Origin: Escherichia coli
Lineage (GTDB): Bacteria; Pseudomonadota; Gammaproteobacteria; Enterobacterales; Enterobacteriaceae
Direction: 5' to 3' (one strand)
DNA length: 64,000 nucleotides
Assembly (NCBI RefSeq): GCF_041886205.1
Contig: NZ_CP169030.1
The translations under genes were made by a program, and so were the position numbers. The notes beneath the pieces are model-generated. The model searched no databases, had not been told where the DNA came from, and saw only the letters and a list, made by a program, of their open reading frames with translations. This document shows, one piece after another, positions 8,811 through 30,543 of the stretch. Position 1 is the stretch's first letter; the number at the start of each line of letters is the position of its first letter.

Positions 8811-9086
8811 CTACCTGTTTTCTCGTGTGTGCCACAGGCGCAATACATAAATAGTCTGGCCATTAAGTTCGTAACGGATTTCGTACTCGCCAGCAAAAAT
8901 CCGTCTGACCTCCCTGGGTTCAAACTGAAACAACTGTTCTCCCATACGTGGATGAGTTAACAGAATGACCGGTGCCTGTGTCAGGGATTGCACCGTTCTG
9001 GCGGCCGCAGGTTTACTGGCCAGCACCAGAAAATCATATAACCGCGCCAAATCAGAAAGCGCCTTACTGGTCCACTTCAGTTCCAT
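8811..9086 (-). CDS. RelE/ParE-family toxin
   Basis: 91 aa with typical RelE/ParE C-terminal signature; overlaps upstream antitoxin gene by 1 nt. Confidence 0.7.
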   Translation of the reverse strand: MELKWTSKALSDLARLYDFLVLASKPAAARTVQSLTQAPVILLTHPRMGEQLFQFEPREVRRIFAGEYEIRYELNGQTIYVLRLWHTRENR

Positions 9087-9370
9087 CAGCGTGGCACCGG
9101 TAACGGATTGTCAGTACTGAGGCTGTCCGCCCAGGCCTGTACAGCCTGATGGTCGATAACCTGTCCGGATGTCACATCGTCCAGGGCTTCCAGCGTCAGG
9201 CGATTACGCTCCTCCTCCTGGGCAAGCCATGCAGAAAGCGCCTGTTTGATAACCCAGCCCCGGGAGCGTTCCAGCCTGGCGGCCATCTGGTCGACTTTAT
9301 CAGCCATAGGTAATGGCACATGCGCGGTAATGACTTTTGTTGCTTGTGCACTATTGTTTTTCATTTGCAT
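9086..9370 (-). CDS. Antitoxin (RHH/ParD-like) of the RelE/ParE module
   Basis: 94-aa ORF immediately upstream of and overlapping the toxin gene. Confidence 0.6.
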   Translation of the reverse strand: MQMKNNSAQATKVITAHVPLPMADKVDQMAARLERSRGWVIKQALSAWLAQEEERNRLTLEALDDVTSGQVIDHQAVQAWADSLSTDNPLPVPR

Positions 9371-9520: not shown

Positions 9521-9566
9521 TCGTCCGAATATCACCAGTCCCACTCCGGCCCTGCGAGGCCATGTG

Positions 9567-9604
9567 GGGGGAACCGCAGAATTCGGAAAAAATCGTACGC
9601 TAAG
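9567..9604. repeat. Left 38-bp terminal inverted repeat of the Tn1721-like transposon
   Basis: GGGGGAACCGCAGAATTCGGAAAAAATCGTACGCTAAG. Confidence 0.8.
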
Positions 9605-9755
9605 CTAACGGTGTTCTCGTGACAGCTCTTTGACTAGGCTTTCTAAGGCCATTCTGATAGCCCTGACTTCCTGAAAAGCCATGGCTAAAATTTGTGCGGC
9701 TAAAAGGGATAACCGATGGTAAAGTAAGTTATCCCTGTCGAGATACTGAAAAGCG

Positions 9756-11333
9756 TTATCCTCGTTTTTCCCAAAACTGTTTTGCCAGTTCGCTCAGAGC
9801 GCTAGTTAACTGAGCGACAGATTTCGCACTTTGCAAATTATTCTGCCCGGTCTGTACATTGGTATCAGCAGCATCGCGTATATTGATAATACTGCGGTTT
9901 ATGTCTTCACTTACTGCTCCCTGCTGCTCGACCGCAGTCGCTATTTGCGCGTTCATGTCGGTAATTTCGTTAACGCGTTGGCCAATTCCATCAAGAGCTG
10001 TAGCTGCTTCCTCTGCGTGAGCTACACTCGTGTGCGCTTGCCGACTACTTTGCTCCATGACTGTAACAGCGGATTGCGCTCGCTCTTGTAGAGCGCTGAT
10101 CATGCTTTGAATATCCGTTGTCGATTGCTGTGTGCGAGCAGCAAGACTGCGAACCTCATCGGCGACAACAGCAAAACCACGCCCCTGCTCACCAGCACGC
10201 GCGGCCTCAATTGCTGCGTTGAGTGCCAACAAATTCGTTTGCTCGGCGATCCCTCGTATAACGTCAAGAACTTTTGATATCTCGTTACTTTGACCTTCAA
10301 GCTCATGAATAACCTGAGTGGCTTGCCTAATTTCACCTTCAAGGGCAGTGATTGACTGGCTTGTGTGGGCTACCAGACGCTGGCCAGATGCCGTCTCAGT
10401 GTCTGCTCTTCCGGCCGCATCTGCAGCATGCTGTGCATTGCTCGCAACCTCTTGAATGCTTGCCACCATTTGGTTTACTGCCGTTGCTATTTGATCTGTC
10501 TCTGCCTGCTGCTCAACTGTAAGTACATTGCTTGACTCAATATCCTTTAGTAGGCCTCGGGTGTGTTCGCTAAGCCGATTTGATGCATCACCTATGCGAC
10601 CTACTATGGCGCCTGTTTCAGCTTGCATCATTCGTAAAGCAAACTCTATTTGGCCAAACTCATCGGTGCGCCCAGTGTAGAGGGATTGACTTAATGGGTT
10701 ATTGGAAATATTCTTGGCTCTTTCAACCAGTCTTCCAAGAGGAGAGAGAATAGCCAAAACACTAACAGAGCTTAAGCTTCCTGACATTAAAGTGGCTAAC
10801 AATAAGCTGCTTATTGATGTATCAGTAAGCATGCCGGCAGCCATTGCGCTTGATATAATACTACCCCATATGAGCAAGAGTATTTTCACGGAAAAGCTAG
10901 CAGCCAATTTCGGCCTCGCGGCCTTCCCGCTTCTCAATTGAGCATATAATTTTTCCGCAGCCAAAACCTGCTCAGGTTCAGGCTTGGTCCTTACAGACTG
11001 GTATTCAACAATCGAACCATTCTTAGCTATTGGCGTTACATAAGCACTTACCCAATAGTGGTCGCCATTTTTACAGCGATTTTTTACTAGCCCCATCCAT
11101 GAGCGGCCAGATTTTAATGTACTCCACATATGCTCAAATGCAGCAGGCGGCATATCTGGGTGTCTTACGATGTTGTGAGGCTGGCCTAATAGTTCTTCCT
11201 CAGTGAAACCACTGATTTTAATGAAGTCAGGATTAACGTACGTGATATGGCTTTGAGGGGAGGTAGTCGAAAGAATATTGGCATCTTTTGGGAGTTCTAA
11301 GTTTCGACCCGTCACTGGTAAATTCTGGCGCAT
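9756..11333 (-). CDS. Methyl-accepting chemotaxis protein-like protein with PAS domain (Tn1721 orfI-type cargo)
   Basis: 525 aa; N-terminal PAS-like region, central TM segments, C-terminal MCP signalling domain ([31 protein letters not shown]). Confidence 0.8.
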
Positions 11334-11620
11334 AAGAACCTCAAGGGTTGGCTGTTTTATTTTATTGTTTTCGGCATTAAGCCCAATTTCTTGAGCGTTA
11401 CGATAAAGCTAGCATGGAAACGATAGGTGCAAGCAAGTTAAGGGTTGCATCGCGCATGTCAATCTAGGCTATACCCTAACTTGATGTCAGGCAGGGCCGC
11501 GCCGCTTCGTCAGAATAGAGTCTGCTTTCCCATTTTTTGACACATGCCCGCGAAGGTTATAGATTTCAGCCTGACAGAAATGGGCTTTGAGGCACAACGG
11601 AACAGAAAGTGCACTTAAGC

Positions 11621-11625
11621 CGCCT
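11621..11625. repeat. 5-bp target-site duplication (CGCCT) flanking IRt of the integron
   Basis: CGCCT immediately outside IRt; the same pentamer lies immediately outside the second IRi at 22464-22468. Confidence 0.6.
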
Positions 11626-11650
11626 TGTCATTTTCAGAAGACGACTGCAC
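11626..11650. repeat. IRt (25-bp terminal inverted repeat at tni end of Tn402-like integron)
   Basis: TGTCATTTTCAGAAGACGACTGCAC. Confidence 0.8.
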
Positions 11651-11766
11651 CAGTTGATTGGGCGTAATGGCTGTTGTGCAGCCAGCTCCTGACAGTTCAA
11701 TATCAGAAGTGATCTGCACCAATCTCGACTATGCTCAATACTCGTGTGCACCAAAGCGAGGTGAGC

Positions 11767-13446
11767 ATGGCGACGGACACCCCACGGATTCCAGAACAAG
11801 GCGTGGCCACTCTGCCTGATGAGGCTTGGGAGCGTGCGCGCCGTCGTGCGGAGATCATCAGTCCGTTGGCGCAGTCGGAGACGGTCGGGCACGAAGCGGC
11901 CGATATGGCGGCTCAGGCGCTGGGCTTGTCTCGGCGCCAGGTATACGTTCTGATCCGGCGTGCCCGGCAAGGCAGCGGCCTCGTGACGGATCTGGTGCCC
12001 GGCCAGTCCGGTGGAGGTAAAGGTAAGGGGCGCTTGCCGGAACCGGTCGAGCGCGTCATCCACGAGCTACTGCAAAAGCGGTTCCTGACCAAGCAGAAGC
12101 GCAGCCTAGCGGCCTTTCACCGCGAAGTCACTCAGGTGTGCAAGGCTCAAAAACTGCGAGTGCCGGCGCGCAATACCGTGGCCTTACGGATCGCTAGCCT
12201 TGACCCGCGCAAGGTCATCCGCCGGCGGGAAGGCCAGGATGCCGCTCGTGACCTACAAGGTGTGGGCGGCGAGCCTCCTGCCGTGACCGCGCCGCTGGAG
12301 CAGGTGCAGATAGACCATACGGTCATCGACCTGATCGTGGTCGATGACCGCGACCGGCAACCTATTGGCCGCCCGTACCTGACCCTCGCCATCGACGTGT
12401 TCACCCGCTGCGTGCTCGGCATGGTCGTCACGCTGGAAGCGCCGTCTGCCGTTTCGGTTGGCCTGTGCCTCGTGCATGTCGCCTGCGACAAGCGCCCTTG
12501 GCTGGAAGGACTGAACGTGGAAATGGATTGGCAGATGAGCGGCAAGCCCTTGCTGCTCTACCTAGACAACGCGGCCGAGTTCAAGAGCGAGGCCCTGCGC
12601 CGGGGTTGCGAGCAGCATGGCATCCGGCTGGACTATCGCCCGCTGGGACAGCCGCACTATGGCGGCATCGTGGAACGGATCATCGGCACGGCGATGCAGA
12701 TGATTCACGACGAACTGCCGGGAACGACCTTCTCCAACCCTGACCAGCGCGGCGACTACGATTCCGAAAACAAGGCCGCCCTGACGCTGCGCGAGCTAGA
12801 GCGCTGGCTCACATTGGCGGTCGGCACCTACCACGGTTCGGTGCACAACGGCCTGCTCCAACCGCCGGCCGCGCGCTGGGCCGAGGCCGTGGCGCGTGTC
12901 GGCGTACCGGCCGTCGTCACACGCGCTACTTCGTTCCTGGTCGATTTTCTGCCGATCCTCCGGCGCACGCTGACCCGCACCGGCTTTGTCATCGACCACA
13001 TCCACTACTACGCCGATGCGCTCAAGCCGTGGATTGCGCGGCGTGAACGCTGGCCGTCCTTTCTGATCCGGCGCGATCCGCGCGACATCAGCCGTATCTG
13101 GGTCCTGGAACCGGAGGGACAGCATTACCTGGAAATTCCCTACCGTACCTTGTCGCATCCGGCTGTCACCCTCTGGGAACAACGGCAGGCGCTGGCGAAA
13201 CTGCGGCAGCAAGGGCGCGAACAGGTGGATGAGTCGGCGCTGTTCCGCATGATCGGCCAGATGCGTGAGATTGTGACCAGCGCGCAGAAGGCCACACGCA
13301 AGGCGCGGCGTGACGCGGATCGCCGCCAGCACCTCAAGACATCAGCTCGGCCGGACAAGCCCGTTCCGCCGGATACGGATATTGCCGACCCGCAGGCAGA
13401 CAACTTGCCACCCGCCAAACCGTTCGACCAGATTGAGGAGTGGTAG
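11767..13446 (+). CDS. tniA: TniA transposase (Tn402/Tn5053 family, DDE)
   Basis: 559 aa starting MATDTPRIPEQG; ORF-track start at 11731 is an upstream in-frame Met. Confidence 0.9.
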   Translation: MATDTPRIPEQGVATLPDEAWERARRRAEIISPLAQSETVGHEAADMAAQALGLSRRQVYVLIRRARQGSGLVTDLVPGQSGGGKGKGRLPEPVERVIHELLQKRFLTKQKRSLAAFHREVTQVCKAQKLRVPARNTVALRIASLDPRKVIRRREGQDAARDLQGVGGEPPAVTAPLEQVQIDHTVIDLIVVDDRDRQPIGRPYLTLAIDVFTRCVLGMVVTLEAPSAVSVGLCLVHVACDKRPWLEGLNVEMDWQMSGKPLLLYLDNAAEFKSEALRRGCEQHGIRLDYRPLGQPHYGGIVERIIGTAMQMIHDELPGTTFSNPDQRGDYDSENKAALTLRELERWLTLAVGTYHGSVHNGLLQPPAARWAEAVARVGVPAVVTRATSFLVDFLPILRRTLTRTGFVIDHIHYYADALKPWIARRERWPSFLIRRDPRDISRIWVLEPEGQHYLEIPYRTLSHPAVTLWEQRQALAKLRQQGREQVDESALFRMIGQMREIVTSAQKATRKARRDADRRQHLKTSARPDKPVPPDTDIADPQADNLPPAKPFDQIEEW

Positions 13447-13448
13447 CC

Positions 13449-14357
13449 GTGGACGAATATCCCATCATCGACCTGTCCCACCTGCTGCCGGCGGCCCAGG
13501 GCTTGGCCCGTCTTCCGGCGGACGAGCGCATCCAGCGCCTTCGCGCCGACCGCTGGATCGGCTATCCGCGCGCAGTCGAGGCGCTGAACCGGCTGGAAGC
13601 CCTTTATGCGTGGCCAAACAAGCAACGCATGCCCAACCTGCTGCTGGTTGGCCCGACCAACAATGGCAAGTCGATGATCGTCGAGAAGTTCCGCCGCACC
13701 CACCCGGCCAGCTCCGACGCCGACCAGGAGCACATCCCGGTGTTGGTCGTGCAGATGCCGTCCGAGCCGTCCGTGATCCGCTTCTACGTCGCGCTGCTCG
13801 CCGCGATGGGCGCGCCGCTGCGCCCACGCCCACGGTTGCCGGAAATGGAGCAACTGGCTCTGGCACTGCTGCGCAAGGTCGGCGTGCGCATGCTGGTGAT
13901 CGACGAGCTGCACAACGTGCTGGCCGGCAACAGCGTCAACCGCCGGGAATTCCTCAACCTGCTGCGCTTCCTCGGCAACGAACTGCGCATCCCGTTGGTT
14001 GGGGTAGGCACGCGCGACGCCTACCTAGCCATCCGCTCCGATGACCAGTTGGAAAATCGCTTCGAGCCGATGATGCTGCCGGTATGGGAGGCCAACGACG
14101 ATTGCTGCTCACTGCTGGCCAGCTTCGCCGCTTCGCTCCCGCTGCGCCGGCCTTCCCCAATTGCCACGCTGGACATGGCTCGCTACCTGCTCACACGCAG
14201 CGAGGGCACCATAGGGGAACTGGCGCACTTGCTGATGGCGGCGGCCATCGTCGCCGTGGAGAGCGGCGAGGAAGCGATCAACCATCGCACACTCAGCATG
14301 GCCGTTTACACCGGACCCAGCGAGCGGCGGCGGCAATTCGAGCGGGAACTGATGTGA
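13449..14357 (+). CDS. tniB: TniB NTP-binding transposition protein
   Basis: Walker A VGPTNNGKS, probable GTG start at 13449 giving MDEYPIIDL. Confidence 0.85.
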   Translation: MDEYPIIDLSHLLPAAQGLARLPADERIQRLRADRWIGYPRAVEALNRLEALYAWPNKQRMPNLLLVGPTNNGKSMIVEKFRRTHPASSDADQEHIPVLVVQMPSEPSVIRFYVALLAAMGAPLRPRPRLPEMEQLALALLRKVGVRMLVIDELHNVLAGNSVNRREFLNLLRFLGNELRIPLVGVGTRDAYLAIRSDDQLENRFEPMMLPVWEANDDCCSLLASFAASLPLRRPSPIATLDMARYLLTRSEGTIGELAHLLMAAAIVAVESGEEAINHRTLSMAVYTGPSERRRQFERELM

Positions 14358-15571
14358 AGCCTGCGCCGCGCTGGCCGCTGCATCCCGCCCCGAAAGAAGG
14401 CGAGGCGCTGTCCTCATGGCTCAACCGCGTGGCCCTTTGCTATCACATGGAGGAGCCCGACCTGCTGGAGCACGATCTTGGTCACGGCCAGGTCGATGAC
14501 CTGGACACCGCGCCACCACTCTCGCTGCTGGCGTTGCTTTCCCAGCGGAGCGGCATCGAGCTGGACCGGCTGCGCTGTATGAGTTTCGCCGGATGGGTGC
14601 CTTGGCTACTGGACAGCCTTGATGACCAGATTCCAGACGCCTTGGAAACCTATGCGTTTCAGCTCTCGGTGTTGCTGCCAAGACTCCGCCGTAAGACGCG
14701 ATCCATCACGAGCTGGCGTGCCTGGCTGCCCAGCCAGCCGATAAACCGCGCCTGTCCGCTCTGCCTGAGCGATCCGGAGAACCAAGCCGTACTGCTCGCG
14801 TGGAAGCTGCCCCTGATGCTGAGCTGCCCGCTGCATGGCTGCTGGCTGGAATCCTATTGGGGCGTGCCAGGGCGGTTTCTCGGCTGGGAGAACGCCGACG
14901 CCGAACCGCGCACCGCCAGCGACGCGATTGCGGCGATGGACCAGCGTACCTGGCAGGCACTGACAACCGGTCACGTGGAGCTGCCGCGCCGACGCATCCA
15001 CGCCGGATTGTGGTTTCGACTTCTTCGCACGCTGCTCGATGAGCTGAACACCCCGCTTTCCGCGTGCGGAACCTGCGCGGGGTATCCCCGCCAAGTCTGG
15101 GAAGGCTGCGGGCATCCGCTGCGTGCTGGGCAAAGTCTGTGGCGACCGTATGAAACCCTGAATCCGATAGTACGGTTACAGATGCTGGAGGCGGCGGCAA
15201 CGGCAATCAGCTTGATTGAGGTGAGGGACATCAGCCCGCCAGGCGAGCAGGCAAAGCTATTCTGGTCCGAGCCCCAAACCGGGTTCACCAGTGGCCTGCC
15301 GACGAAAGCGCCGAAGCCCGAGCCCATCAATCACTGGCAGCGTGCAGTCCAGGCCATCGACGAGGCCATCATTGAAGCGCGACACAACCCCGAGACGGCA
15401 CGCTCGCTGTTCGCGTTGGCTTCCTATGGTCGGCGCGATCCCGCTTCCTTGGAACGGTTGCGCGCCACCTTCGTGAAGGAAGGCATCCCGCCGGAATTTC
15501 TGTCACATTACCTGCCTGATGCACCCTTTGCATGTCTTAAACAAAATGACGGGTTAAGTGACAAATTTTGA
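14354..15571 (+). CDS. tniQ: TniQ transposition protein
   Basis: 405-aa frame starting at GTG overlapping tniB stop (VKPAPRWPLHPAPKEGEALSSWLNR); the ORF-track entry 14084-15571 is an upstream extension of this frame. Confidence 0.8.
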   Translation: MKPAPRWPLHPAPKEGEALSSWLNRVALCYHMEEPDLLEHDLGHGQVDDLDTAPPLSLLALLSQRSGIELDRLRCMSFAGWVPWLLDSLDDQIPDALETYAFQLSVLLPRLRRKTRSITSWRAWLPSQPINRACPLCLSDPENQAVLLAWKLPLMLSCPLHGCWLESYWGVPGRFLGWENADAEPRTASDAIAAMDQRTWQALTTGHVELPRRRIHAGLWFRLLRTLLDELNTPLSACGTCAGYPRQVWEGCGHPLRAGQSLWRPYETLNPIVRLQMLEAAATAISLIEVRDISPPGEQAKLFWSEPQTGFTSGLPTKAPKPEPINHWQRAVQAIDEAIIEARHNPETARSLFALASYGRRDPASLERLRATFVKEGIPPEFLSHYLPDAPFACLKQNDGLSDKF

Positions 15572-15617
15572 CGGATAGAGCTTTCCGGCTCACACTGTCA
15601 CATAATCGAACGTATAC

Positions 15618-16256
15618 GTGACGGGTGAAAAGGTGCTGATCGGCTACATGCGGGTATCGAAGGCGGACGGATCCCAGTCCACCAATTTGCAACGCGATGC
15701 GCTCATCGCCGCTGGTGTGAGCCTTGCGCACCTTTACGAGGATCTGGCCTCGGGCAGGCGCGATGATCGCCCAGGGTTGGCTGCTTGCCTGAAGGCGCTT
15801 CGTGAAGGGGACACGCTGATCGTGTGGAAGCTCGATCGGCTTGGCCGTGATCTGCGCCACCTGATCAACACCGTGCACGACCTAACTGCGCGTAGCGTGG
15901 GCCTGAAGGTCCTGACCGGTCACGGTGCGGCGGTCGACACGACGACTGCCGCCGGCAAGCTTGTGTTCGGTATTTTTGCCGCGCTGGCCGAGTTCGAGCG
16001 TGAGTTGATTTCCGAGCGAACAGTCGCTGGACTTATCTCGGCGCGCGCTCGCGGCAGGAAAGGGGGGCGCCCCTTCAAGATGACCGCCGCCAAGCTACGC
16101 CTGGCGATGGCCAGCATGGGGCAACCGGAAACCAAGGTGGGCGATCTCTGCGAAGAACTCGGGATTACCCGGCAGACGCTCTACCGGCACGTGTCGCCCA
16201 AGGGCGAACTGCGGCCAGACGGCGTAAAGCTGCTCTCCCTCGGTTCAGCCGCATAA
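15618..16256 (+). CDS. tniR: TniR/TniC serine resolvase of Tn402-like element
   Basis: Serine recombinase motifs (IGYMRVSKADGSQ; C-terminal HTH); exact start uncertain. Confidence 0.8.
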   Translation: MTGEKVLIGYMRVSKADGSQSTNLQRDALIAAGVSLAHLYEDLASGRRDDRPGLAACLKALREGDTLIVWKLDRLGRDLRHLINTVHDLTARSVGLKVLTGHGAAVDTTTAAGKLVFGIFAALAEFERELISERTVAGLISARARGRKGGRPFKMTAAKLRLAMASMGQPETKVGDLCEELGITRQTLYRHVSPKGELRPDGVKLLSLGSAA

Positions 16257-16353
16257 ATGGAGGCGACCTGGAACGGGGCGCTGTTCAGTGCGGCAACGAT
16301 CCGATTACCGGTGTCGACCCAGAGCAGCCGTAGAGCTTTTGGGAAAGCTGTCG

Positions 16354-16448
16354 TTCAACGTTTGACGTGAGGGGCCGCCGTAGCGGCGAAGCCGCGAAGG
16401 GAACCCGCAAGCGCAGCTTGTGGGCGGTCCCTCTCGACGGAATGGTTA
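16354..16448 (-). other. Probable attC recombination site of the qac gene cassette
   Basis: Minus-strand inverse core ATCTAAC (plus 16441-16448) and core GTTGAAC (plus 16354-16360) bracket ~95 bp downstream of the qac stop; boundaries approximate. Confidence 0.4.
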
Positions 16449-16460
16449 GATGCGACCGTT

Positions 16461-16793
16461 TTAGTGAACACTTGCCTTAGATAGCAAGTTGAGCACAGCA
16501 ACGCCGCTGATAATGAAGCCGACACCAACAAATCCCCACATATCTAGTTTTTGACCATGCAAAACCCATGCAATCGCAGTGACCAAGACGATCCCGAGGC
16601 CCGACCAAACTGCGTAGGCGATTCCAACAGGAATCGATTTGAGTGTCAGCGACAGGAAATAAAAAGCAGCAGCGTATCCCGCTACGACGATAAAAGACGG
16701 TACTAACCTAGTAAAGCCCTCACTAGACTTGAGCGCAGAGGTTGCAATGACCTCAAAAATAATGGCCGTAGCCAGAAATAACCAATTTTTCAA
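16461..16793 (-). CDS. Small multidrug resistance (SMR) quaternary ammonium compound efflux protein, qacH/qacL-type gene cassette
   Basis: 110-aa frame [27 protein letters not shown]... with probable TTG start; the ORF-track entry 16461-17102 is an artefactual upstream extension through attI1. Confidence 0.75.
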
Positions 16794-16888
16794 AATATTT
16801 CTCCATGGAGTTCCGCGAAGAAATTTTAGGTTCGATTTAAGAAAAAAAACAGTCTTGTTGCTGGCCGAAATTTGTGCGCACAGCAAAG

Positions 16889-16965
16889 CATCTAACTTTG
16901 TTTTAGGGCGACTGCCCTGCTGCGTAACATCGTTGCTGCTCCATAACATCAAACATCGACCCACG
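16889..16965. other. attI1 site (copy 1) with cassette junction GTTAGATGC on minus strand
   Basis: Sequence CCCTAAAACAAAGTTAGATGC (minus strand) directly upstream of intI1; boundaries approximate. Confidence 0.6.
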
Positions 16966-17031
16966 GCGTAACGCGCTTGCTGCTTGGATGCCCGAGGCAT
17001 AGACTGTACAAAAAAACAGTCATAACAAGCC

Positions 17032-18045
17032 ATGAAAACCGCCACTGCGCCGTTACCACCGCTGCGTTCGGTCAAGGTTCTGGACCAGTTGCGTGAGCGC
17101 ATACGCTACTTGCATTACAGTTTACGAACCGAACAGGCTTATGTCCACTGGGTTCGTGCCTTCATCCGTTTCCACGGTGTGCGTCACCCGGCAACCTTGG
17201 GCAGCAGCGAAGTCGAGGCATTTCTGTCCTGGCTGGCGAACGAGCGCAAGGTTTCGGTCTCCACGCATCGTCAGGCATTGGCGGCCTTGCTGTTCTTCTA
17301 CGGCAAGGTGCTGTGCACGGATCTGCCCTGGCTTCAGGAGATCGGAAGACCTCGGCCGTCGCGGCGCTTGCCGGTGGTGCTGACCCCGGATGAAGTGGTT
17401 CGCATCCTCGGTTTTCTGGAAGGCGAGCATCGTTTGTTCGCCCAGCTTCTGTATGGAACGGGCATGCGGATCAGTGAGGGTTTGCAACTGCGGGTCAAGG
17501 ATCTGGATTTCGATCACGGCACGATCATCGTGCGGGAGGGCAAGGGCTCCAAGGATCGGGCCTTGATGTTACCCGAGAGCTTGGCACCCAGCCTGCGCGA
17601 GCAGCTGTCGCGTGCACGGGCATGGTGGCTGAAGGACCAGGCCGAGGGCCGCAGCGGCGTTGCGCTTCCCGACGCCCTTGAGCGGAAGTATCCGCGCGCC
17701 GGGCATTCCTGGCCGTGGTTCTGGGTTTTTGCGCAGCACACGCATTCGACCGATCCACGGAGCGGTGTCGTGCGTCGCCATCACATGTATGACCAGACCT
17801 TTCAGCGCGCCTTCAAACGTGCCGTAGAACAAGCAGGCATCACGAAGCCCGCCACACCGCACACCCTCCGCCACTCGTTCGCGACGGCCTTGCTCCGCAG
17901 CGGTTACGACATTCGAACCGTGCAGGATCTGCTCGGCCATTCCGACGTCTCTACGACGATGATTTACACGCATGTGCTGAAAGTTGGCGGTGCCGGAGTG
18001 CGCTCACCGCTTGATGCGCTGCCGCCCCTCACTAGTGAGAGGTAG
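17032..18045 (+). CDS. intI1: Class 1 integron integrase IntI1 (copy 1)
   Basis: 337-aa tyrosine recombinase [49 protein letters not shown]... Confidence 0.95.
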
Positions 18046-18222
18046 GGCAGCGCAAGTCAATCCTGGCGGATTCACTACCCCTGCGCGAAGGCCATCGGTG
18101 CCGCATCGAACGGCCGGTTGCGGAAAGTCCTCCCTGCGTCCGCTGATGGCCGGCAGCAGCCCGTCGTTGCCTGATGGATCCAACCCCTCCGCTGCTATAG
18201 TGCAGTCGGCTTCTGACGTTCA

Positions 18223-18247
18223 GTGCAGCCGTCTTCTGAAAACGACA
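18223..18247. repeat. IRi (25-bp inverted repeat at intI1 end), copy 1, internal
   Basis: GTGCAGCCGTCTTCTGAAAACGACA; followed by TTTGA rather than the CGCCT seen outside IRt. Confidence 0.8.
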
Positions 18248-18329
18248 TTTGAACCGGGAACCTTCCCTTTTTGGCTAGGCGTGAAACAATGGTCATTTTC
18301 CCTATACCCAAAATGACCAGGAGGCCCGC

Positions 18330-18428
18330 ATGAAAGTCGCACGCATCTACCTGCGCGTGAGCACGGAGGAACAAGACCTAAGCCGGCAGGATGCCATCGT
18401 GGAGAGCTTAAATAAGACCGTCCCGTAA
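18330..18428 (+). pseudogene. Serine recombinase (resolvase) N-terminal fragment, truncated after ~27 codons by the 88-bp repeat
   Basis: MKVARIYLRVSTEEQDLSRQDAIVES matches the catalytic-serine N-terminus of resolvases; frame then runs into repeat sequence and stops. Confidence 0.5.
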
Positions 18429-18495
18429 ATTTCAGCCGAATCCGACAAAAAGGCGTGAAGATTTCCTTTAAATAGAGAGACCGAAGGTCATCCTT
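18408..18495. repeat. 88-bp direct repeat, copy A, flanking the tet(M) segment
   Basis: TTAAATAAGACCGTCCCGTAAATTTCAGCCGAATCCGACAAAAAGGCGTGAAGATTTCCTTTAAATAGAGAGACCGAAGGTCATCCTT, identical at 20999-21086. Confidence 0.85.
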
Positions 18496-18648
18496 TTCCT
18501 AAAAAAGGGGGGGGCCATGGTTCCAAGATGTAAAATCGAGGGCTAATTCAGGCTATACTTGAACTATCCTTAATGGAATCTTTAGCCAGCGGTATCAACG
18601 AAGCAAGAAACATCGAAGACTAATTAAAAGAATCCATACATAACGGAA

Positions 18649-18693
18649 AGAGCCGATAAAATGAGATTGTATTAATCTCATTTTATCGGCTCT
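18649..18693. terminator. Long perfect hairpin (19-bp stem) at the 3' end of the small ORF downstream of tet(M)
   Basis: AGAGCCGATAAAATGAGATT-gtat-TAATCTCATTTTATCGGCTCT. Confidence 0.45.
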
Positions 18694-18850
18694 GCGTCTT
18701 TGCGTCTGGCTCTGTAATCGCAGTTACTTTGAACTGCTTTATTTCAATTAAATTTTCTTGTCTGCATTTCGGACAATAGAGGGGGAATTTTTTTAATTCA
18801 GTATCTTCCCTTATCTTTAATCGTGTTTTATTTCCACATACAGGACACAA
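18683..18850 (-). CDS. Small Cys-rich zinc-ribbon-like protein (~55 aa), Tn916 orf6-like, downstream of tet(M)
   Basis: Minus-strand frame CPVCGNKTRLKIREDTELKKFPLYCPKCRQENLIEIKQFKVTAITEPDAKTQSR with TTG/GTG start; below ORF-track length cutoff. Confidence 0.4.
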   Translation of the reverse strand: MCPVCGNKTRLKIREDTELKKFPLYCPKCRQENLIEIKQFKVTAITEPDAKTQSR

Positions 18851-18968
18851 TATCCACTTGTAGTTTATAATAACTATCTCCTCCTTTACACTTTAATTCA
18901 AATCTTTATTAAAAAATATTTCATCTTATTTAACAAGAAACCATATTTATATAACAACATAAAATACA

Positions 18969-20888
18969 CTAAGTTATTTTATTGAACATATATCGTACTT
19001 TATCTATCCGACTATTTGGACGACGGGGCTGGCAAACAGGTTCACCGGTAGTAACATGGTACCCTTTTAACTCTGTTAAACAAACACTACGTCCATTTGT
19101 AAAGAAAGTTAAATCACTACGATATTCTTGAATACACCGAGCAGGGATTTCTCCACTAAGAATGACCTCATTATTTTTCAATTGAGTGTCTACGATGTTC
19201 GCACAATATTTAGGAGCATCGTTGTATGCTCGTGAAAGATATTCCTGTGGCGCATAAATTTTAAAACTAAGATATGGCTCTAACAATTCTGTTCCAGCTT
19301 TTTTTAAGACTTGTTCCAATACAATAGGAGCAAGCATCCGAAAATCTGCTGGGGTACTAACAGGGCTATAGTATAAGCCATACTTAAAACAGATTTTACA
19401 GTCCGTCACATTCCAACCATACAATCCTTGTTCACAGCCATAGCGTATCCCTTCCATAACTGCATTTTGAAATGATTGATTTAAGTATCCAAGAGAAACC
19501 GAGCTCTCATACTGCATTCCACTTCCCAACGGAAGCGGTGATACAGATAAACCAATGGAAGCCCAGAAAGGATTTGGCGGCACTTCGATGTGAATGGTAT
19601 ATTCTGCATTTTTTAACGGTCTCTCCATATAAATGACTGTAGGCTCTTTTAGTTCTATCTCCACATGATACTTTTCTTGCAACAGTGCACTAATCACTTC
19701 CATTTGTACTTTCCCTAAGAAAGAAAGTATAATTTCATGTGTCGTAGAATCCACGTAATATCGTAGAAGCGGATCACTATCTGAGATTTCCAAAAGGGCA
19801 TCAAGCAACATTTCTCTCTGTTCAGGTTTACTCGGTTCAACAGTTGTTTGTAGTAGAGGGTGCGGATTTTCAATCTTTTTTCTCTGTGGCAATAGTTTTG
19901 TATCTCCAAGAACACTATTTAACTTCAAAAACTCATTTTGCAAAATAACAATTTCCCCGGAATAAGCCTTATCGATTTTACATAATTCACCATTTATTGA
20001 AGTATACATTTCTGTAATTTTTATTTTTTCCTTTTCCGATATTCTAACCGAATCTCGCAAATGCAGTACGCCACTATAAAGACGTATATATGCAAGACGT
20101 TGTCTTTTTTTTGTATATTCAATTTTGAAAACATTTCCGCAAAGTTCAGACTGACCTCGATGTGTTGATGAATAAAATTTATTCGTAATCACTTCTATAA
20201 GGTTATCAATCCCTATATTGTTTTTTGCACTTCCATGATAAAGAGGGAACAGAGAACAATTCTGAAATCTTATGCTTTCCTCTTGTTCGAGTTCCAATGC
20301 TTCTAATGATTTACCGGACATATATTTCTCTAAAAGGTCATCGTTTCCCTCTATTACCGTATCCCATTGTTCAGATTCGGTAAAGTTCGTCACACACATA
20401 TTAGGATACAGTTCTACCTTCTGTTTGATTACAATTTCGGCAGAAAGTTTCTCTTTAATATCCTGATAAACCGTTGATAAATCAATTCCATTTTGGTCAA
20501 TCTTATTGATAAAAAAGATTGTGGGAATCCCCATTTTCCTAAGTGCATGAAATAATATACGAGTTTGTGCTTGTACGCCATCTTTTGCAGAAATCAGTAG
20601 AATTGCCCCATCTAAAACTGATAATGAACGATATACTTCTGCTAAGAAATCCATATGTCCTGGCGTGTCTATGATGTTCACCTTCGTATTTTCCCACTGA
20701 AAAGAGGTTATTCCTGTCTGAATTGTAATTCCTCTCTGACGTTCTAAAAGCGTATTATCCGTCCTCGTTGTACCTTTGTCCACGCTTCCTAATTCTGTAA
20801 TCGCTCCACTGTTATATAATAAGCTTTCTGTTAAGGTAGTTTTTCCCGCATCAACATGAGCTAAAACTCCAATATTAATAATTTTCAT
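18969..20888 (-). CDS. tet(M): Tetracycline resistance ribosomal protection protein Tet(M)
   Basis: 639 aa starting [30 protein letters not shown] (translational GTPase motifs); the ORF-track frame begins 5 codons upstream. Confidence 0.95.
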
Positions 20889-20903
20889 GTGATTTTCCTC
20901 CAT

Positions 20904-20990
20904 TCAAAAGCCCAAAAGGGCATAAAAATCCCAGTGATAAATACTCTTATCACTGGGATTTTTATGCATAACCATAGGCATACAAAGCAT
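20904..20990 (-). CDS. tet(M) leader peptide (28 aa) of the transcriptional attenuator
   Basis: MLCMPMVMHKNPSDKSIYHWDFYALLGF immediately upstream of tet(M), as in Tn916. Confidence 0.7.
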   Translation of the reverse strand: MLCMPMVMHKNPSDKSIYHWDFYALLGF

Positions 20991-20998
20991 ACAGATAT

Positions 20999-21086
20999 TT
21001 AAATAAGACCGTCCCGTAAATTTCAGCCGAATCCGACAAAAAGGCGTGAAGATTTCCTTTAAATAGAGAGACCGAAGGTCATCCTT
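20999..21086. repeat. 88-bp direct repeat, copy B, flanking the tet(M) segment
   Basis: Identical to 18408-18495, same orientation. Confidence 0.85.
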
Positions 21087-21134
21087 GAAGAAGGAGTCCT
21101 CGGTGAGATTCAGAATGCCGAACACCGTCACCCT
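21087..21134 (-). pseudogene. sul1: sul1 5' fragment (codons ~2-17 only), joined on one side to the 88-bp repeat and on the other to truncated attI1
   Basis: Minus strand reads (V)TVFGILNLTEDSFF, the N-terminus of Sul1 dihydropteroate synthase, lacking its ATG and everything after codon ~17. Confidence 0.7.
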
Positions 21135-21200
21135 GCTGCGTAACATCGTTGCTGCTCCATAACATCAAACATCGACCCACGGCGTAACGCGCTTGCTGCT
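21133..21200. other. attI1 (copy 2), truncated: lacks the GTTAGATGC crossover end
   Basis: Sequence identical to copy 1 from CCCTGCTGCGTAACATCG onward, but the cassette-proximal ~25 bp are replaced by the sul1 fragment. Confidence 0.6.
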
Positions 21201-21247
21201 TGGATGCCCGAGGCATAGACTGTACAAAAAAACAGTCATAACAAGCC

Positions 21248-22261
21248 ATGAAAACCGCCACTGCGCCGTTACCACCGCTGCGTTCGGTCAAGGTTCTGGA
21301 CCAGTTGCGTGAGCGCATACGCTACTTGCATTACAGCTTACGAACCGAACAGGCTTATGTCCACTGGGTTCGTGCCTTCATCCGTTTCCACGGTGTGCGT
21401 CACCCGGCAACCTTGGGCAGCAGCGAAGTCGAGGCATTTCTGTCCTGGCTGGCGAACGAGCGCAAGGTTTCGGTCTCCACGCATCGTCAGGCATTGGCGG
21501 CCTTGCTGTTCTTCTACGGCAAGGTGCTGTGCACGGATCTGCCCTGGCTTCAGGAGATCGGAAGACCTCGGCCGTCGCGGCGCTTGCCGGTGGTGCTGAC
21601 CCCGGATGAAGTGGTTCGCATCCTCGGTTTTCTGGAAGGCGAGCATCGTTTGTTCGCCCAGCTTCTGTATGGAACGGGCATGCGGATCAGTGAGGGTTTG
21701 CAACTGCGGGTCAAGGATCTGGATTTCGATCACGGCACGATCATCGTGCGGGAGGGCAAGGGCTCCAAGGATCGGGCCTTGATGTTACCCGAGAGCTTGG
21801 CACCCAGCCTGCGCGAGCAGCTGTCGCGTGCACGGGCATGGTGGCTGAAGGACCAGGCCGAGGGCCGCAGCGGCGTTGCGCTTCCCGACGCCCTTGAGCG
21901 GAAGTATCCGCGCGCCGGGCATTCCTGGCCGTGGTTCTGGGTTTTTGCGCAGCACACGCATTCGACCGATCCACGGAGCGGTGTCGTGCGTCGCCATCAC
22001 ATGTATGACCAGACCTTTCAGCGCGCCTTCAAACGTGCCGTAGAACAAGCAGGCATCACGAAGCCCGCCACACCGCACACCCTCCGCCACTCGTTCGCGA
22101 CGGCCTTGCTCCGCAGCGGTTACGACATTCGAACCGTGCAGGATCTGCTCGGCCATTCCGACGTCTCTACGACGATGATTTACACGCATGTGCTGAAAGT
22201 TGGCGGTGCCGGAGTGCGCTCACCGCTTGATGCGCTGCCGCCCCTCACTAGTGAGAGGTAG
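21248..22261 (+). CDS. intI1: Class 1 integron integrase IntI1 (copy 2, identical protein)
   Basis: Identical 337-aa translation to copy 1; one silent nucleotide difference noted. Confidence 0.95.
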
Positions 22262-22438
22262 GGCAGCGCAAGTCAATCCTGGCGGATTCACTACCCCTGC
22301 GCGAAGGCCATCGGTGCCGCATCGAACGGCCGGTTGCGGAAAGTCCTCCCTGCGTCCGCTGATGGCCGGCAGCAGCCCGTCGTTGCCTGATGGATCCAAC
22401 CCCTCCGCTGCTATAGTGCAGTCGGCTTCTGACGTTCA

Positions 22439-22463
22439 GTGCAGCCGTCTTCTGAAAACGACA
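22439..22463. repeat. IRi, copy 2 (outer end of integron), followed by CGCCT target duplication
   Basis: GTGCAGCCGTCTTCTGAAAACGACA then CGCCT at 22464-22468. Confidence 0.8.
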
Positions 22464-22485
22464 CGCCTTCAACCAAGGAGACATC

Positions 22486-23046
22486 GTGCAGGGGCACCGC
22501 ATCGGCTACGTCCGGGTCAGCAGCTTTGACCAGAACCCGGAACGCCAGCTGGAACAAACCCAGGTGAGCAAGGTGTTCACCGACAAGGCATCGGGCAAGG
22601 ACACCCAGCGCCCCCAGCTCGAAGCGCTGCTGAGCTTCGTCCGCGAAGGCGATACAGTGGTGGTGCACAGCATGGATCGGCTGGCCCGCAACCTCGATGA
22701 CCTGCGTCGCTTGGTACAGAAGCTGACTCAGCGCGGCGTGCGCATCGAGTTCCTGAAGGAGGGCCTGGTGTTCACTGGCGAGGACTCGCCGATGGCCAAC
22801 CTGATGCTGTCGGTGATGGGGGCCTTCGCTGAGTTCGAGCGCGCCCTGATCCGCGAGCGGCAGCGTGAGGGCATCGCCTTGGCCAAGCAGCGTGGCGCGT
22901 ACCGGGGCCGCAAGAAAGCCCTGTCCGATGAGCAGGCTGCTACCCTGCGGCAGCGAGCGACGGCCGGCGAGCCCAAGGCGCAGCTTGCCCGCGAGTTCAA
23001 CATCAGCCGGGAAACCCTCTACCAGTACCTCCGCACGGACGACTGA
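22486..23046 (+). CDS. tnpR: TnpR resolvase (Tn21/Tn1721 subfamily)
   Basis: 186-aa serine recombinase MQGHRIGYVRVSSFDQNPERQ... Confidence 0.9.
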   Translation: MQGHRIGYVRVSSFDQNPERQLEQTQVSKVFTDKASGKDTQRPQLEALLSFVREGDTVVVHSMDRLARNLDDLRRLVQKLTQRGVRIEFLKEGLVFTGEDSPMANLMLSVMGAFAEFERALIRERQREGIALAKQRGAYRGRKKALSDEQAATLRQRATAGEPKAQLAREFNISRETLYQYLRTDD

Positions 23047-23049
23047 CAC

Positions 23050-26016
23050 ATGCCGCGTCGCTTGATCCTCTCGGCCACGGAGCGGGACACCCTGCTTGCG
23101 CTGCCGGAAAGCCAGGATGACCTGATCCGCTACTACACCTTCAACGACTCCGACCTGTCGCTGATCCGCCAGCGACGCGGCGACGCCAACCGCCTCGGCT
23201 TCGCCGTGCAGCTCTGCCTGCTGCGCTACCCCGGTTACGCGCTGGGAACCGACAGCGAGCTGCCCGAGCCGGTCATCCTGTGGGTGGCGAAGCAAGTCCA
23301 GGCCGAGCCGGCGAGCTGGGCAAAGTACGGCGAGCGCGACGTGACCCGTCGCGAGCATGCCCAGGAACTGCGCACCTACCTGCAACTGGCCCCGTTCGGC
23401 CTGTCCGACTTCCGCGCCCTGGTGCGCGAGCTAACCGAGCTGGCCCAGCAGACCGACAAAGGCTTGCTGCTGGCCGGTCAGGCCCTGGAGAGCCTACGGC
23501 AGAAACGACGCATCCTGCCGGCGCTGAGCGTGATTGACCGGGCCTGCTCGGAAGCCATTGCGCGAGCCAATCGGCGGGTCTACCGCGCCCTGGTCGAACC
23601 ACTCACGGACTCGCATCGGGCCAAGCTGGACGAGCTGTTGAAGCTCAAGGCCGGCAGCAGCATCACCTGGTTGACCTGGCTGCGCCAGGCACCGCTGAAA
23701 CCCAACTCTCGGCACATGCTGGAACACATCGAGCGGCTGAAGACATTTCAGTTGGTGGACTTGCCCGAAGGCCTGGGCCGGCACATCCACCAGAACCGCC
23801 TGCTCAAGCTGGCCCGCGAGGGTGGGCAGATGACGCCCAAAGACCTCGGTAAGTTCGAGCCGCAGCGCCGCTACGCGACCCTGGCCGCCGTGGTGCTGGA
23901 GAGCACCGCGACCGTGATCGATGAGCTGGTCGATCTGCATGACCGCATCCTGGTCAAGCTGTTCAGCGGCGCGAAGCACAAGCATCAGCAGCAGTTCCAG
24001 AAGCAGGGCAAGGCGATCAACGACAAGGTGCGCCTGTACTCCAGGATCGGCCAGGCGCTGCTGGAAGCGAAGGAAAGCGGCAGCGACCCCTATGCCGCCA
24101 TCGAGGCGGTGATTCCCTGGGACGAGTTCACCGAGAGCGTCAGCGAGGCCGAGCTGCTGGCCCGGCCGGAAGGCTTCGACCACCTGCACCTGGTCGGCGA
24201 GAACTTCGCCACCCTGCGCCGTTACACGCCGGCCTTGCTGGAGGTGCTGGAACTGCGCGCCGCGCCGGCCGCGCAAGGCGTGCTGGCAGCCGTGCAGACC
24301 CTGCGTGAGATGAACGCCGACAACCTGCGCAAGGTGCCGGCCGATGCACCCACGGCCTTCATCAAGCCGCGCTGGAAGCCGCTGGTGATCACCCCGGAAG
24401 GCCTCGACCGGAAATTCTACGAAATCTGCGCCCTGTCCGAGCTGAAGAACGCCCTGCGCTCCGGCGACATCTGGGTCAAGGGCTCGCGGCAGTTCCGCGA
24501 CTTCGACGACTACCTGCTGCCGGCCGAGAAGTTCGCCGCACTCAAGCGCGAGCAGGCCCTGCCCCTGGCGATCAACCCGAACAGCGACCAGTACCTGGAA
24601 GAGCGTTTGCAGCTGCTGGACGAGCAGTTGGCCACCGTCACCCGCCTGGCCAAGGACAACGAGCTGCCCGATGCCATCCTCACCGAGTCAGGGCTGAAAA
24701 TCACCCCGCTGGATGCGGCGGTGCCGGATCGGGCGCAGGCGCTGATCGACCAAACCAGCCAGTTACTGCCGCGCATCAAGATCACCGAACTGCTGATGGA
24801 CGTGGACGACTGGACGGGCTTCAGCCGCCACTTCACCCACTTGAAGGACGGGGCCGAGGCCAAAGACAGGACGTTGCTGCTGTCCGCAATCCTCGGTGAT
24901 GCGATCAACCTCGGGCTGACCAAGATGGCCGAGTCGAGCCCCGGCCTGACCTACGCCAAGCTGTCCTGGCTGCAAGCCTGGCACATCCGCGACGAAACCT
25001 ATTCGGCGGCCTTGGCCGAGCTGGTCAACCACCAGTATCGCCACGCCTTTGCCGCCCACTGGGGCGACGGCACGACCTCATCCTCCGATGGCCAGCGCTT
25101 CCGCGCGGGTGGCCGGGGCGAGAGCACCGGGCACGTCAACCCGAAGTACGGTAGCGAGCCGGGACGGCTGTTCTATACCCATATCTCCGACCAGTACGCG
25201 CCGTTCAGCACCCGCGTGGTGAATGTCGGCGTCCGCGATTCCACCTATGTGCTCGACGGCCTGCTGTACCACGAGTCCGACCTGCGGATCGAGGAGCACT
25301 ACACCGACACGGCCGGCTTCACCGATCACGTCTTTGCCCTGATGCACCTGCTAGGCTTCCGCTTCGCGCCGCGCATCCGCGACCTCGGCGAAACCAAGCT
25401 GTACGTGCCGCAGGGCGTGCAAGCCTACCCGACGTTGCGCCCGCTGATCGGCGGCACCCTGAACATCAAGCACGTGCGTGCCCACTGGGACGACATCCTG
25501 CGCCTGGCCAGCTCGATCAAGCAGGGCACCGTCACCGCCTCGCTGATGCTGCGCAAGCTCGGCAGCTACCCGCGCCAGAACGGACTGGCCGTGGCCCTGC
25601 GCGAGCTGGGCCGGATCGAGCGCACGCTGTTCATCCTGGACTGGCTGCAAAGTGTTGAACTGCGCCGCCGCGTGCATGCCGGCCTGAACAAAGGTGAGGC
25701 GCGCAACTCGCTGGCCAGGGCGGTGTTCTTCAACCGCCTTGGGGAAATCAGGGATCGGAGCTTCGAGCAGCAGCGCTACCGGGCCAGCGGCCTCAACCTG
25801 GTGACGGCGGCTATCGTGCTGTGGAACACGGTGTACCTGGAACGCGCCACCCAGGGGTTGGTCGAGGCCGGCAAGCCGGTGGACGGCGAGCTGCTGCAAT
25901 TCCTGTCGCCGCTGGGCTGGGAGCACATCAACCTAACCGGCGATTACGTCTGGCGGCAGAGCCGCAGACTGGAAGACGGGAAGTTTCGGCCCTTACGGAT
26001 GCCCGGAAAACCTTAG
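23050..26016 (+). CDS. tnpA: TnpA transposase (Tn3 family, Tn21/Tn1721 subfamily)
   Basis: 988-aa ORF ending inside the terminal inverted repeat. Confidence 0.9.
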
Positions 26017-26049
26017 CGTACGATTTTTTCCGAATTCTGCGGGCTCCCC
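26012..26049. repeat. Right 38-bp terminal inverted repeat of the Tn1721-like transposon
   Basis: Reverse complement reads GGGGAGCCCGCAGAATTCGGAAAAAATCGTACGCTAAG. Confidence 0.8.
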
Positions 26050-26190
26050 TTGTTTGTACGATTCGATATCGATACTGCGTAATGGCCGGTACTTCCCTGT
26101 ACCCAGCTTAAGATTATTACGCCAGACATCATCCCCATTAAGATTGATATGCTCCCAGCCCAACGGCGAAAGGTGAGTGCAGTTGGTCAT
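26050..26190 (-). pseudogene. 3' remnant of a second Tn3-family tnpA, inverted and abutting the outer end of the transposon IR
   Basis: Minus-strand translation [31 protein letters not shown] parallels the TnpA C-terminus [31 protein letters not shown]. Confidence 0.5.
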
Positions 26191-27863: not shown

Positions 27864-27917
27864 TGAAGTTGCTCCACTGTCTTATCAGAATTATGTATAG
27901 AGGTAAGAGTTTGCGGG

Positions 27918-30447: not shown

Positions 30448-30543
30448 CGTCTACTCCATTACCATTTAACTATTTGTTAAATTTGTAATTGAAATGTATA
30501 CGTATGATTGTATGGGCGCTATAACGAATAGCTAAAGATGGGT

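Follow-up and report, generated by a model that had tools for sequence, protein, structure and literature searches.

Our analysis strongly suggests that a 6,622-bp Tn402-type transposon carrying a class 1 integron was inserted by transposition beside the res site of a Tn1721/Tn1722-type transposon, and that a tet(M)-bearing unit was recombined into it at a later time. The nested element lies within the window, which is the whole 64,000-nucleotide stretch of DNA that was analysed, and it is bounded by the following features.

11626-11650, + strand: IRt, with the sequence TGTCATTTTCAGAAGACGACTGCAC; more 19-bp TniA-type repeats occur up to ~11719
22439-22463: outer IRi, present as the reverse complement and complementary to IRt at 23 of 25 positions
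18223-18247, - strand: inner IRi, identical to the outer IRi, which closes a 6,622-bp Tn402-like unit
11621-11625: left copy of CGCCT, the 5-bp target-site duplication
22464-22468: right copy of CGCCT, the 5-bp target-site duplication

The original prediction had CGCCT flanking both IRt and the second IRi, and both pentamers were found in these positions, while the flank of the inner IRi is TTTGA and does not match CGCCT. When the element was removed in silico by joining 11126-11625 to 22469-22968, the flanks rebuilt uninterrupted, contiguous Tn1721-type sequence in one piece (1000 of 1000 bases, 100%), and this empty site matches many plasmids, pFBAOT6 (NC_006143) among them. Because the join is 100% identical to Tn1721, the two pentamers do not appear to be a coincidence. 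Recombination within conserved segments is a frequent means of movement for class 1 integrons, apparently used by the tet(M) unit as well, and the whole integron might in principle have arrived by homologous or illegitimate recombination with a chance CGCCT on either side. We consider this extremely improbable, as a random 5-bp match of this kind has a chance of ~1/1024 (~0.001), removal with one CGCCT restores intact Tn1721, two complete 25-bp inverted repeats are present, and both the orientation and the res-adjacent site fit the family. The TniA-type 19-bp repeats are intact at both element ends; the proviso that intact ends would have to be supplied for transposition therefore falls away, the ends being already intact and identical to those of Tn402.

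The transposon that received the insertion was delimited by its terminal repeats and genes.

9567-9604, + strand: left 38-bp terminal IR of Tn1722/Tn1721, complementary to 26012-26049 at 35 of 38 positions
9756-11333, - strand: mcp/orfI, encoding the Tn1721 methyl-accepting chemotaxis protein with a PAS domain (matches to the NCBIfam MCP and PAS models; annotation of matching records)
~11457-11576, + strand: putative complete res of Tn1721, in three blocks that are also conserved in Tn21 of R100 (res I ~11457-11490, with crossover at ~11471-11480; res II ~11508-11545; res III ~11552-11576; all limits approximate)
11537-11565, + strand: sigma-70-like promoter TTGACA-17-TAGATT inside res II/III (10 of 12 matches in a consensus scan)
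22486-23046, + strand: tnpR of Tn1721/Tn1722, 186 aa (WP_001161490.1 in matching records; recombinase matches)
23050-26016, + strand: tnpA, 988 aa, of TnAs1/Tn1721 type (annotation of matching records)
26012-26049, - strand: right 38-bp IR (IRR-I) of Tn1722, followed by IncF tcu genes, with no tet(A) arm

The order mcp-res-tnpR-tnpA between 38-bp IRs is that of Tn1721/Tn1722, in the Tn21 subgroup of the Tn3 family. We found no third IR of Tn1721 proper in the window, where IncF tcu DNA runs from 26050 on, and no 5-bp direct repeat outside the host IRs (ATGTG vs TTGTT). Since the third IR and tet(A) arm are absent and the flanking repeats differ, the host is, judging by its sequence, the Tn1722 core, with no preserved duplication. 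The limits of the res subsites were drawn from an alignment of Tn21 and Tn1721 together with natural hybrids. Two natural res I hybrids (Tn21/Tn1721 and mer-Tn/Tn1721) change sequence at ~11471-11480, and one of them, in pUTAK-16-1, retains the CGCCT-IRt junction. By this alignment and these hybrids, all three putative subsites would lie on the IRt flank, at odds with the prediction that the insertion had split res between the two flanks. The CGCCT target follows res III at a distance of 44 bp and falls in the tnpR leader, within a spacer specific to Tn1721. Its placement upstream of tnpR stood, and the predicted 23 bp became 22 bases in our count from IRi to the tnpR GTG at 22486, a matter of counting convention.

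All four genes of the transposition module had been predicted to be complete, and each is full length with 100% protein identity to Tn402 of R751.

11767-13446, + strand: tniA, DDE transposase, 559 aa (Pfam Mu-transpos_C and rve)
13449-14357, + strand: tniB, NTP-binding, 302 aa (Pfam TniB)
14354-15571, + strand: tniQ, 405 aa (Pfam TniQ), with a single synonymous SNP at 14884
15572-15632: tniQ-tniR spacer of 61 bp with the Tn402 res, identical to Tn402
15633-16256, + strand: tniR/tniC, serine resolvase, 207 aa (Pfam Resolvase)

Over 4735 bp from IRt, the nucleotide identity to R751 Tn402 is 99.98%; the role of the 61-bp spacer as the Tn402 res is taken from the literature. Elements of the Tn402/Tn5053 family target res regions and generate 5-bp repeats, with IRi usually beside the resolvase gene, and they sometimes insert outside the subsites. 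The element analysed here has IRs identical to the R751 Tn402 ends, a 5-bp duplication, and a complete tniABQ-res-tniR module. It sits beside res and outside any subsite, with its IRi end nearer to tnpR; the gaps are 44 bp to res III and 22 bp to tnpR. The suggestion that this is the res-hunting behaviour of the Tn402 family thus holds, as the element transposed next to the res of Tn1721/Tn1722 in the preferred orientation, and the inner IRi likewise faces the start of an IncP-1 parA gene. From these features we infer that the element may still be competent to transpose today.

Downstream of tniR, the integron consists of a short cassette array and two copies of the 5'-conserved segment (5'-CS).

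16359-16895, - strand: single qacG2 gene cassette with attC (gene 16461-16793), with no 3'-CS
16871-16942, - strand: attI1, the sole intact copy (Rfam RF02912, 72.1 bits)
17032-18045, + strand: intI1 copy 1 (NCBIfam integron integrase, 799 bits)
17119-17147, - strand: PcH1 promoter, TGGACA-17-TAAACT
21131-22463, + strand: second 5'-CS copy, 1,333 bp, cut short within attI1, with intI1 at 21248-22261, PcW, and the outer IRi

The cassette limits were set from the GTTRRRY core sites, and QacG2 scored 231.7 bits against an NCBIfam cut-off of 220 and was called at 100% by AMRFinder in matching records. An Rfam scan of 11000-23000 returned nothing besides the one attI1, and the second 5'-CS copy gave no hit. 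With intI1, attI1, a Pc promoter (PcH1), and at least one cassette (qacG2), this is a class 1 integron. It is not of the clinical sul1 type with a 3'-CS (qacEdelta1-sul1), as only a 44-bp scrap of sul1 is present and the cassette array adjoins tniR. An ISCR1-type complex integron was also considered and rejected: the large ORFs in 11626-22463 are all accounted for by tniABQR, qacG2, two intI1 copies, and tet(M), and the duplicated segment is the 5'-CS. The description as a complex class 1 integron consequently does not hold in its usual sense, there being neither ISCR1 nor a 3'-CS duplication, and the complexity resides in the tet(M) unit and the duplicated 5'-CS. The second copy, 21131-22463, equals 16915-18247 except for one SNP (17121/21337), which is the -10 base of Pc. 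An argument based on this one SNP, PcH1 vs PcW, suggests that the two 5'-CS copies may be of different origin.

The material that separates the two copies is part of an added unit of 4,216 bp, which consists of an IncP-1 parA-res flank of IRi, a Tn916-type tet(M) segment, 44 bp of sul1, and the second 5'-CS, which lacks attI1.

18248-18407, + strand: foreign IRi flank, 160 bp, with an IncP-1-type res and codons 1-26 of the parA resolvase gene
18408-18495: 88-bp direct repeat copy A, 100% identical to 20999-21086
18561-20998, - strand: Tn916-type segment, sharing 96-99.7% identity with plasmids of Enterococcus and Neisseria
18683-18850: small Cys-rich KTR ORF within the Tn916-type segment
18969-20888, - strand: tet(M) (NCBIfam Tet(M), 1515 bits)
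20904-20990, - strand: tet(M) leader peptide (NCBIfam)
20999-21086: 88-bp direct repeat copy B, 100% identical to 18408-18495
21087-21130, - strand: sul1 5'-end fragment, 44 bp, 100% identical to sul1 as annotated in thousands of plasmids

The tet(M) gene between the two intI1 copies was absent from the original prediction. The 160-bp flank at 18248-18407 is 93% identical to the annotated parA of JN106170 and ~81% identical to other IncP-1 parA/res sequences, with a weak Pfam Resolvase match (E = 0.0037), and its first 114-115 bp also follow IRi in pECN580 and pFBAOT6. In PLSDB, the 88-bp repeats had no other match, and no source was found there for them or for the 65 bp that follow. Plasmid p15-0756.1 carries the tet(M) unit between two 5'-CS copies, with a Tn21 flank at the outer IRi and the Pc variants swapped, and its Tn1721 res is uninterrupted. 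The unit thus occurs in other integron contexts, and homologous recombination within the 5'-CS is its most likely route of entry. No circular or donor form of it was observed. A near-identical 1.3-kb repeat is of the kind that short-read assemblies mis-join, and the duplicated intI1 and IRi could for that reason be a mis-resolved assembly artefact. This is scarcely credible, because the same arrangement is found at 100% in AP024116, CP063715, CP043759, CP123685, and CP157136, which are complete, independent sequences from different hosts and laboratories, and the two copies can be told apart by a SNP and by their left junctions.

Comparison with known relatives bears directly on which unit moved. 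Plasmid pSH111_166 (NC_019121), an IncC plasmid of Salmonella Heidelberg, carries an unnamed Tn1721::Tn402-like[qacG2] structure that is 99.95% identical over 12,272 bp and shares the host transposon, insertion point, CGCCT junctions, tni module, qacG2, and PcH1, but only one 5'-CS and IRi are present there and the 4,216-bp tet(M) unit is missing. In Pseudomonas aeruginosa RW109 plasmid 1 (LT969519), the 6,622-bp unit is present end to end at 99.94% identity, also with IRi towards tnpR; there it separates res I from res II in a Tn1721-like element, has a different target duplication, AAGGC, and again lacks the tet(M) unit. In light of these two plasmids, the view that the 10.8-kb unit from IRt to the outer IRi had moved gives way to one in which most probably the 6,622-bp element from IRt to the inner IRi did so. 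The element that moved would have been a pre-3'-CS class 1 integron with the layout IRt-tniABQ-res-tniR-qacG2 cassette-attI1-intI1-IRi. TniABQ-mediated, res-targeted replicative transposition would have delivered it to the res-tnpR interval of Tn1721/Tn1722, where it would have entered between res III (44 bp away) and tnpR (22 bp away), duplicated CGCCT, and left IRi facing the resolvase gene. Homologous recombination in the 5'-CS would afterwards have added the 4,216-bp tet(M) unit, leaving both intI1 and IRi in duplicate. The change might also have run from the duplicated form to the pSH111_166 form, as recombination between the 1.3-kb repeats that deletes tet(M) gives the same product.

This ambiguity leads to an alternative in which the 10.8-kb composite transposed as one and single-copy forms such as pSH111_166 arose later by recombination between the 5'-CS repeats. 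CGCCT does flank IRt and the outer IRi, multi-end composites of the Tn402 family can move together (e.g., Tn6006, which comprises Tn6007 and Tn6008), and deletion across a 1.3-kb direct repeat is easy and would reproduce the PcH1 of pSH111_166 if the crossover fell right of Pc. We nevertheless regard this history as unlikely, given that the 6,622-bp unit occurs without tet(M) at an independent res position in RW109 plasmid 1, that the tet(M) unit is also found in a non-Tn402, Tn21-borne integron context, and that no composite copy with another duplication was seen among the records examined. Several more distant relatives were also compared. Tn402 (Tn5090) of the IncP-1beta plasmid R751 has identical 25-bp IRt and IRi, the same overall layout, no 3'-CS, and a 5'-CS to which that of the window is 99.9% identical, but it carries dfrB3-orfD-qacE and PcS instead of a single qacG2 and PcH1/PcW, while the element here has the added 4.2-kb tet(M) unit with its second 5'-CS and IRi and lies beside a Tn1721 res. 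Tn6007 (in Tn6006/Tn6005; E. cloacae, and pOP-I, KY126370) has the same qacG2 (=qacE2) cassette adjoining tniR and occupies the res of a transposon of the Tn21 subgroup, its IRi end on the side of tnpR; it differs in that its tni is only ~92% identical, its array begins with an additional FMN reductase cassette, and its host is Tn501-like with mer. In2 in Tn21 (R100) and In4 in Tn1696 are also derived from Tn402, adjoin res/tnpR, and have IRi at the end closer to tnpR; unlike the complete tni and 44-bp sul1 scrap found here, they have a 3'-CS (qacEdelta1-sul1) and defective tni.

The nested element is therefore of a known kind that has already been sequenced, namely a Tn402-type integron in Tn1722 on an IncF plasmid, and identical structures are present in at least four public plasmids. 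Searches by accession and element names, with "tet(M)" being unsearchable as a term, found no paper on the tet(M)-bearing composite. The behaviour corresponds to established Tn402/Tn5053 res-hunting and identical sequences are already public. No mechanistic question is opened or settled. It is tempting to speculate that the 10.8-kb composite is itself an autonomous res-hunting transposon and that the position in the tnpR leader rewires both transposons, although we view this combination as doubtful. An autonomous composite would move a Gram-positive tet(M) between plasmids unaided. Under rewiring, transcripts started at the intI1 promoter, which LexA controls, would read through into tnpR-tnpA of Tn1722, and no promoter-like or terminator-like site was found between intI1 and tnpR. 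The TTGACA-17-TAGATT promoter, which is found in intact Tn1721 as well as in the window, is presumed to be the native tnpR promoter and is now directed into IRt and tniA; under rewiring, this promoter in resolvase-occupied res II/III would read into tniABQ. Complete Tn402 transposition modules are uncommon in class 1 integrons from clinical and food-animal sources, and this one provides an example of resistance-gene stacking, with a complete module nested in a transposon of the Tn3 family, which a conjugative IncF plasmid carries in turn, and with tet(M), a gene that stems from Gram-positive bacteria, between the ends of the element. The structure is relevant for surveillance because it offers three nested routes by which tet(M) could move.

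The element is flanked on both sides by a Tn1721/Tn1722 transposon. The original prediction had taken the CGCCT pentamers beside IRt and the outer IRi, two of the 25-bp ends of this Tn402-type class 1 integron, to be a target duplication, and both copies are present among the following features:

9567-9604 and 26012-26049: 38-bp IRs of the host transposon
9756-11333, minus strand: mcp
11621-11625: left CGCCT, directly before IRt
11626-11650: IRt, 25 bp, TGTCATTTTCAGAAGACGACTGCAC
18223-18247: inner IRi, inside the element and identical to the outer IRi
22439-22463: outer IRi, as reverse complement
22464-22468: right CGCCT, directly after the outer IRi
22486-23046: tnpR, its GTG separated from the outer IRi by 22 bases
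23050-26016: tnpA

The prediction stood or fell with whether the flanks would rebuild a contiguous sequence. We reconstructed the empty site by joining 11126-11625 to 22469-22968, which drops the element and one CGCCT, and the resulting 1000 bp aligned as a single piece, at 100% identity, to unbroken Tn1721-type DNA carried by many plasmids, pFBAOT6 (NC_006143) among them. This establishes the duplication as real. The right IR of the host transposon is followed by an IncF backbone (tcuRABC, repA, tra) rather than a tet(A) arm, no third IR occurs in the window, and no 5-bp direct repeat lies outside Tn1722 (9567-26049), where ATGTG (9562-9566) faces TTGTT (26050-26054). The host in the window is thus a Tn1722 core whose own duplication has not been preserved; having neither the repeat nor the tet(A) arm, it is unlike CP063715. 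The equivalent right boundary in the related plasmid LR890509 carries IS4321.

The res site was predicted to be split between the two flanks, and this did not hold. We placed its subsites by aligning intact Tn1721 with Tn21 of R100, which gave three conserved blocks with unconserved spacers between them, the limits being inferred from conservation:

about 11457-11490: res I
about 11508-11545: res II
about 11552-11576: res III

Tn1721 differs from Tn21 in having a ~65-bp spacer ahead of tnpR, and the target CGCCT (11621-11625) falls within this Tn1721-specific spacer, 44 bp past res III. Because all three inferred subsites lie on the IRt side of the target, res appears to be intact on that flank, and the insertion would separate it from tnpR. 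Two natural hybrids, with a left half from Tn21 or another mer transposon and a right half from Tn1721, change from one sequence to the other within GGCATACCCTAAC (about 11471-11480), a switch point that probably corresponds to the crossover site of res I. Of the two, pUTAK-16-1 (CP157136.1, about 4000-4060), keeps the CGCCT-IRt junction, which suggests that the insertion left res I on the IRt flank in use; it also keeps the tet(M) composite, whose outer IRi is followed there by aph(3')-Ia and IS26. The other is p15-0756.1 (CP039857.1, about 11560-11590). Among further Tn402-type IRi ends in Tn1721-type res sites, that of RW109 falls between res I and res II and that of pA708-1 at the edge of res II, and all of them point to tnpR. 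According to the literature, res hunters may also insert outside the subsites, and these elements have a preferred orientation.

A sigma-70-like promoter (TTGACA-17-TAGATT, 11537-11565) inside res II/III is now directed at IRt and tniA. Between the second intI1 copy and tnpR we found no promoter-like or terminator-like site, so expression of tnpR-tnpA may rely on transcription reading through from the intI1 promoter, at which a LexA-box-like sequence is visible.

The unit from IRt to the inner IRi spans 6,622 bp and is organised as follows:

11767-13446: tniA
13449-14357: tniB
14354-15571: tniQ, followed by a 61-bp spacer
15633-16256: tniR
about 16359-16895: qacG2 (gene 16461-16793), the sole cassette
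16871-16942: intact attI1 (Rfam RF02912)
17032-18045: intI1 copy 1, followed by the inner IRi

TniA, TniB, TniQ and TniR are full length and 100% identical as proteins to those of R751 Tn402, with families confirmed by Pfam, so that the tni module is complete as predicted. Over its first 4735 bp the element shares 99.98% identity with Tn402 (one synonymous SNP), and it contains no 3'-CS. These proteins, together with the duplication and the exact empty site, bear out the assignment to the Tn402 family and its transposition mechanism. The original prediction had implied that intact ends would need to be supplied, but IRt and IRi are both intact, and the 19-bp repeats are present at both ends.

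Beyond the inner IRi lie a further 4,216 bp, the tet(M) unit (18248-22463):

18248-18407: non-Tn1721 DNA containing an RBS and codons 1-26 of a serine recombinase gene
18408-18495: 88-bp direct repeat, copy A
18496-18560: 65 bp
18561-20998: Tn916-type segment with a small Cys-rich ORF, tet(M) (18969-20888) and leader peptide
20999-21086: 88-bp direct repeat, copy B
21087-21130: sul1 5' end, 44 bp
21131-22463: second copy of the 5'-conserved segment (5'-CS), 1,333 bp, broken off inside attI1 and extending to the outer IRi

The perfect 88-bp repeats bracket the Tn916-type segment, and in PLSDB neither they nor the adjoining 65 bp had a match beyond the ~18 plasmids with this tet(M) unit. A single base (17121/21337), at position four of the Pc -10 hexamer, distinguishes the two 5'-CS copies: copy 1, with attI1 and qacG2, has PcH1 (TAAACT, 17119-17147), and copy 2, without attI1 and near tnpR, has PcW (TAAGCT, 21335-21363). 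The stretch at 18248-18407 shares 93% identity with a gene annotated as parA (resolvase) on an IncP-1 plasmid, and its first 114-115 bp also follow IRi in pECN580 and pFBAOT6. This parA start, 82 bp past the inner IRi and in the same orientation, has the form of a second "fossil" res-hunter junction internal to the element.

The prediction had treated the 10.8-kb unit, IRt to outer IRi, as what transposed, and related plasmids speak against this. Salmonella Heidelberg pSH111_166 (NC_019121) has both of the same junctions and the same element minus the 4,216 bp (99.95% identity to the window over 12,272 bp; PcH1). Taken alone, this plasmid could also have arisen in the reverse direction, by loss of the tet(M) unit through recombination between repeats. 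The 6,622-bp Tn402-like[qacG2] unit is also found, at 99.94% identity, in P. aeruginosa RW109 plasmid 1 (LT969519.1, 2441-9061), where it interrupts a Tn1721-like transposon between res I and res II, with an AAGGC duplication and IRi towards tnpR. The 6.6-kb unit thus transposed there independently. In p15-0756.1 the tet(M) unit sits between an aadA12-lnu(F) integron and a 5'-CS with Tn21 flank at IRi, the Tn1721 res is unbroken, and the Pc variants are swapped relative to the window. The simplest account is a two-step order, in which the 6.6-kb transposon would have inserted beside the Tn1721 res and the tet(M) unit would have been added later through homologous recombination in the 5'-CS, possibly when a 4,216-bp circle with a PcW 5'-CS integrated.

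The original observation is thus confirmed and its interpretation partly supported. The element is already known. Its type and its mechanism are textbook matter, and public records contain identical sequences: AP024116, CP063715, CP043759 and CP123685 match the full 16.6-kb region at 100%. Exact left and right junctions occur in 11 and about 20 PLSDB records, respectively, mostly from Salmonella and E. coli, and North American food animals are the source of many. Among named elements, the nearest relatives are Tn402, with the same tni module, and Tn6007, with the same qacG2/qacE2 cassette adjoining tniR but a tni only about 92% identical. Searches of the literature library returned no published description of this composite.

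Around Tn1722, the tricarballylate utilisation cluster tcuC, tcuB, tcuA, tcuR (26568-31470, named via annotation of related IncF plasmids) lies directly right of the right IR, and a ParE/RHH toxin-antitoxin pair (8811-9370) just left of the transposon. The window also contains IS903B-type (7695-8663) and IS66-family (32294-33865) transposases. On the IncF backbone, two minus-strand genes may serve in anti-phage defence: the product of one (1054-1953) has a CAP12/Pycsar-type TIR effector domain (Pfam E = 3.7e-37), and the other (3334-5472) encodes an AAA_13 ATPase of 712 aa.
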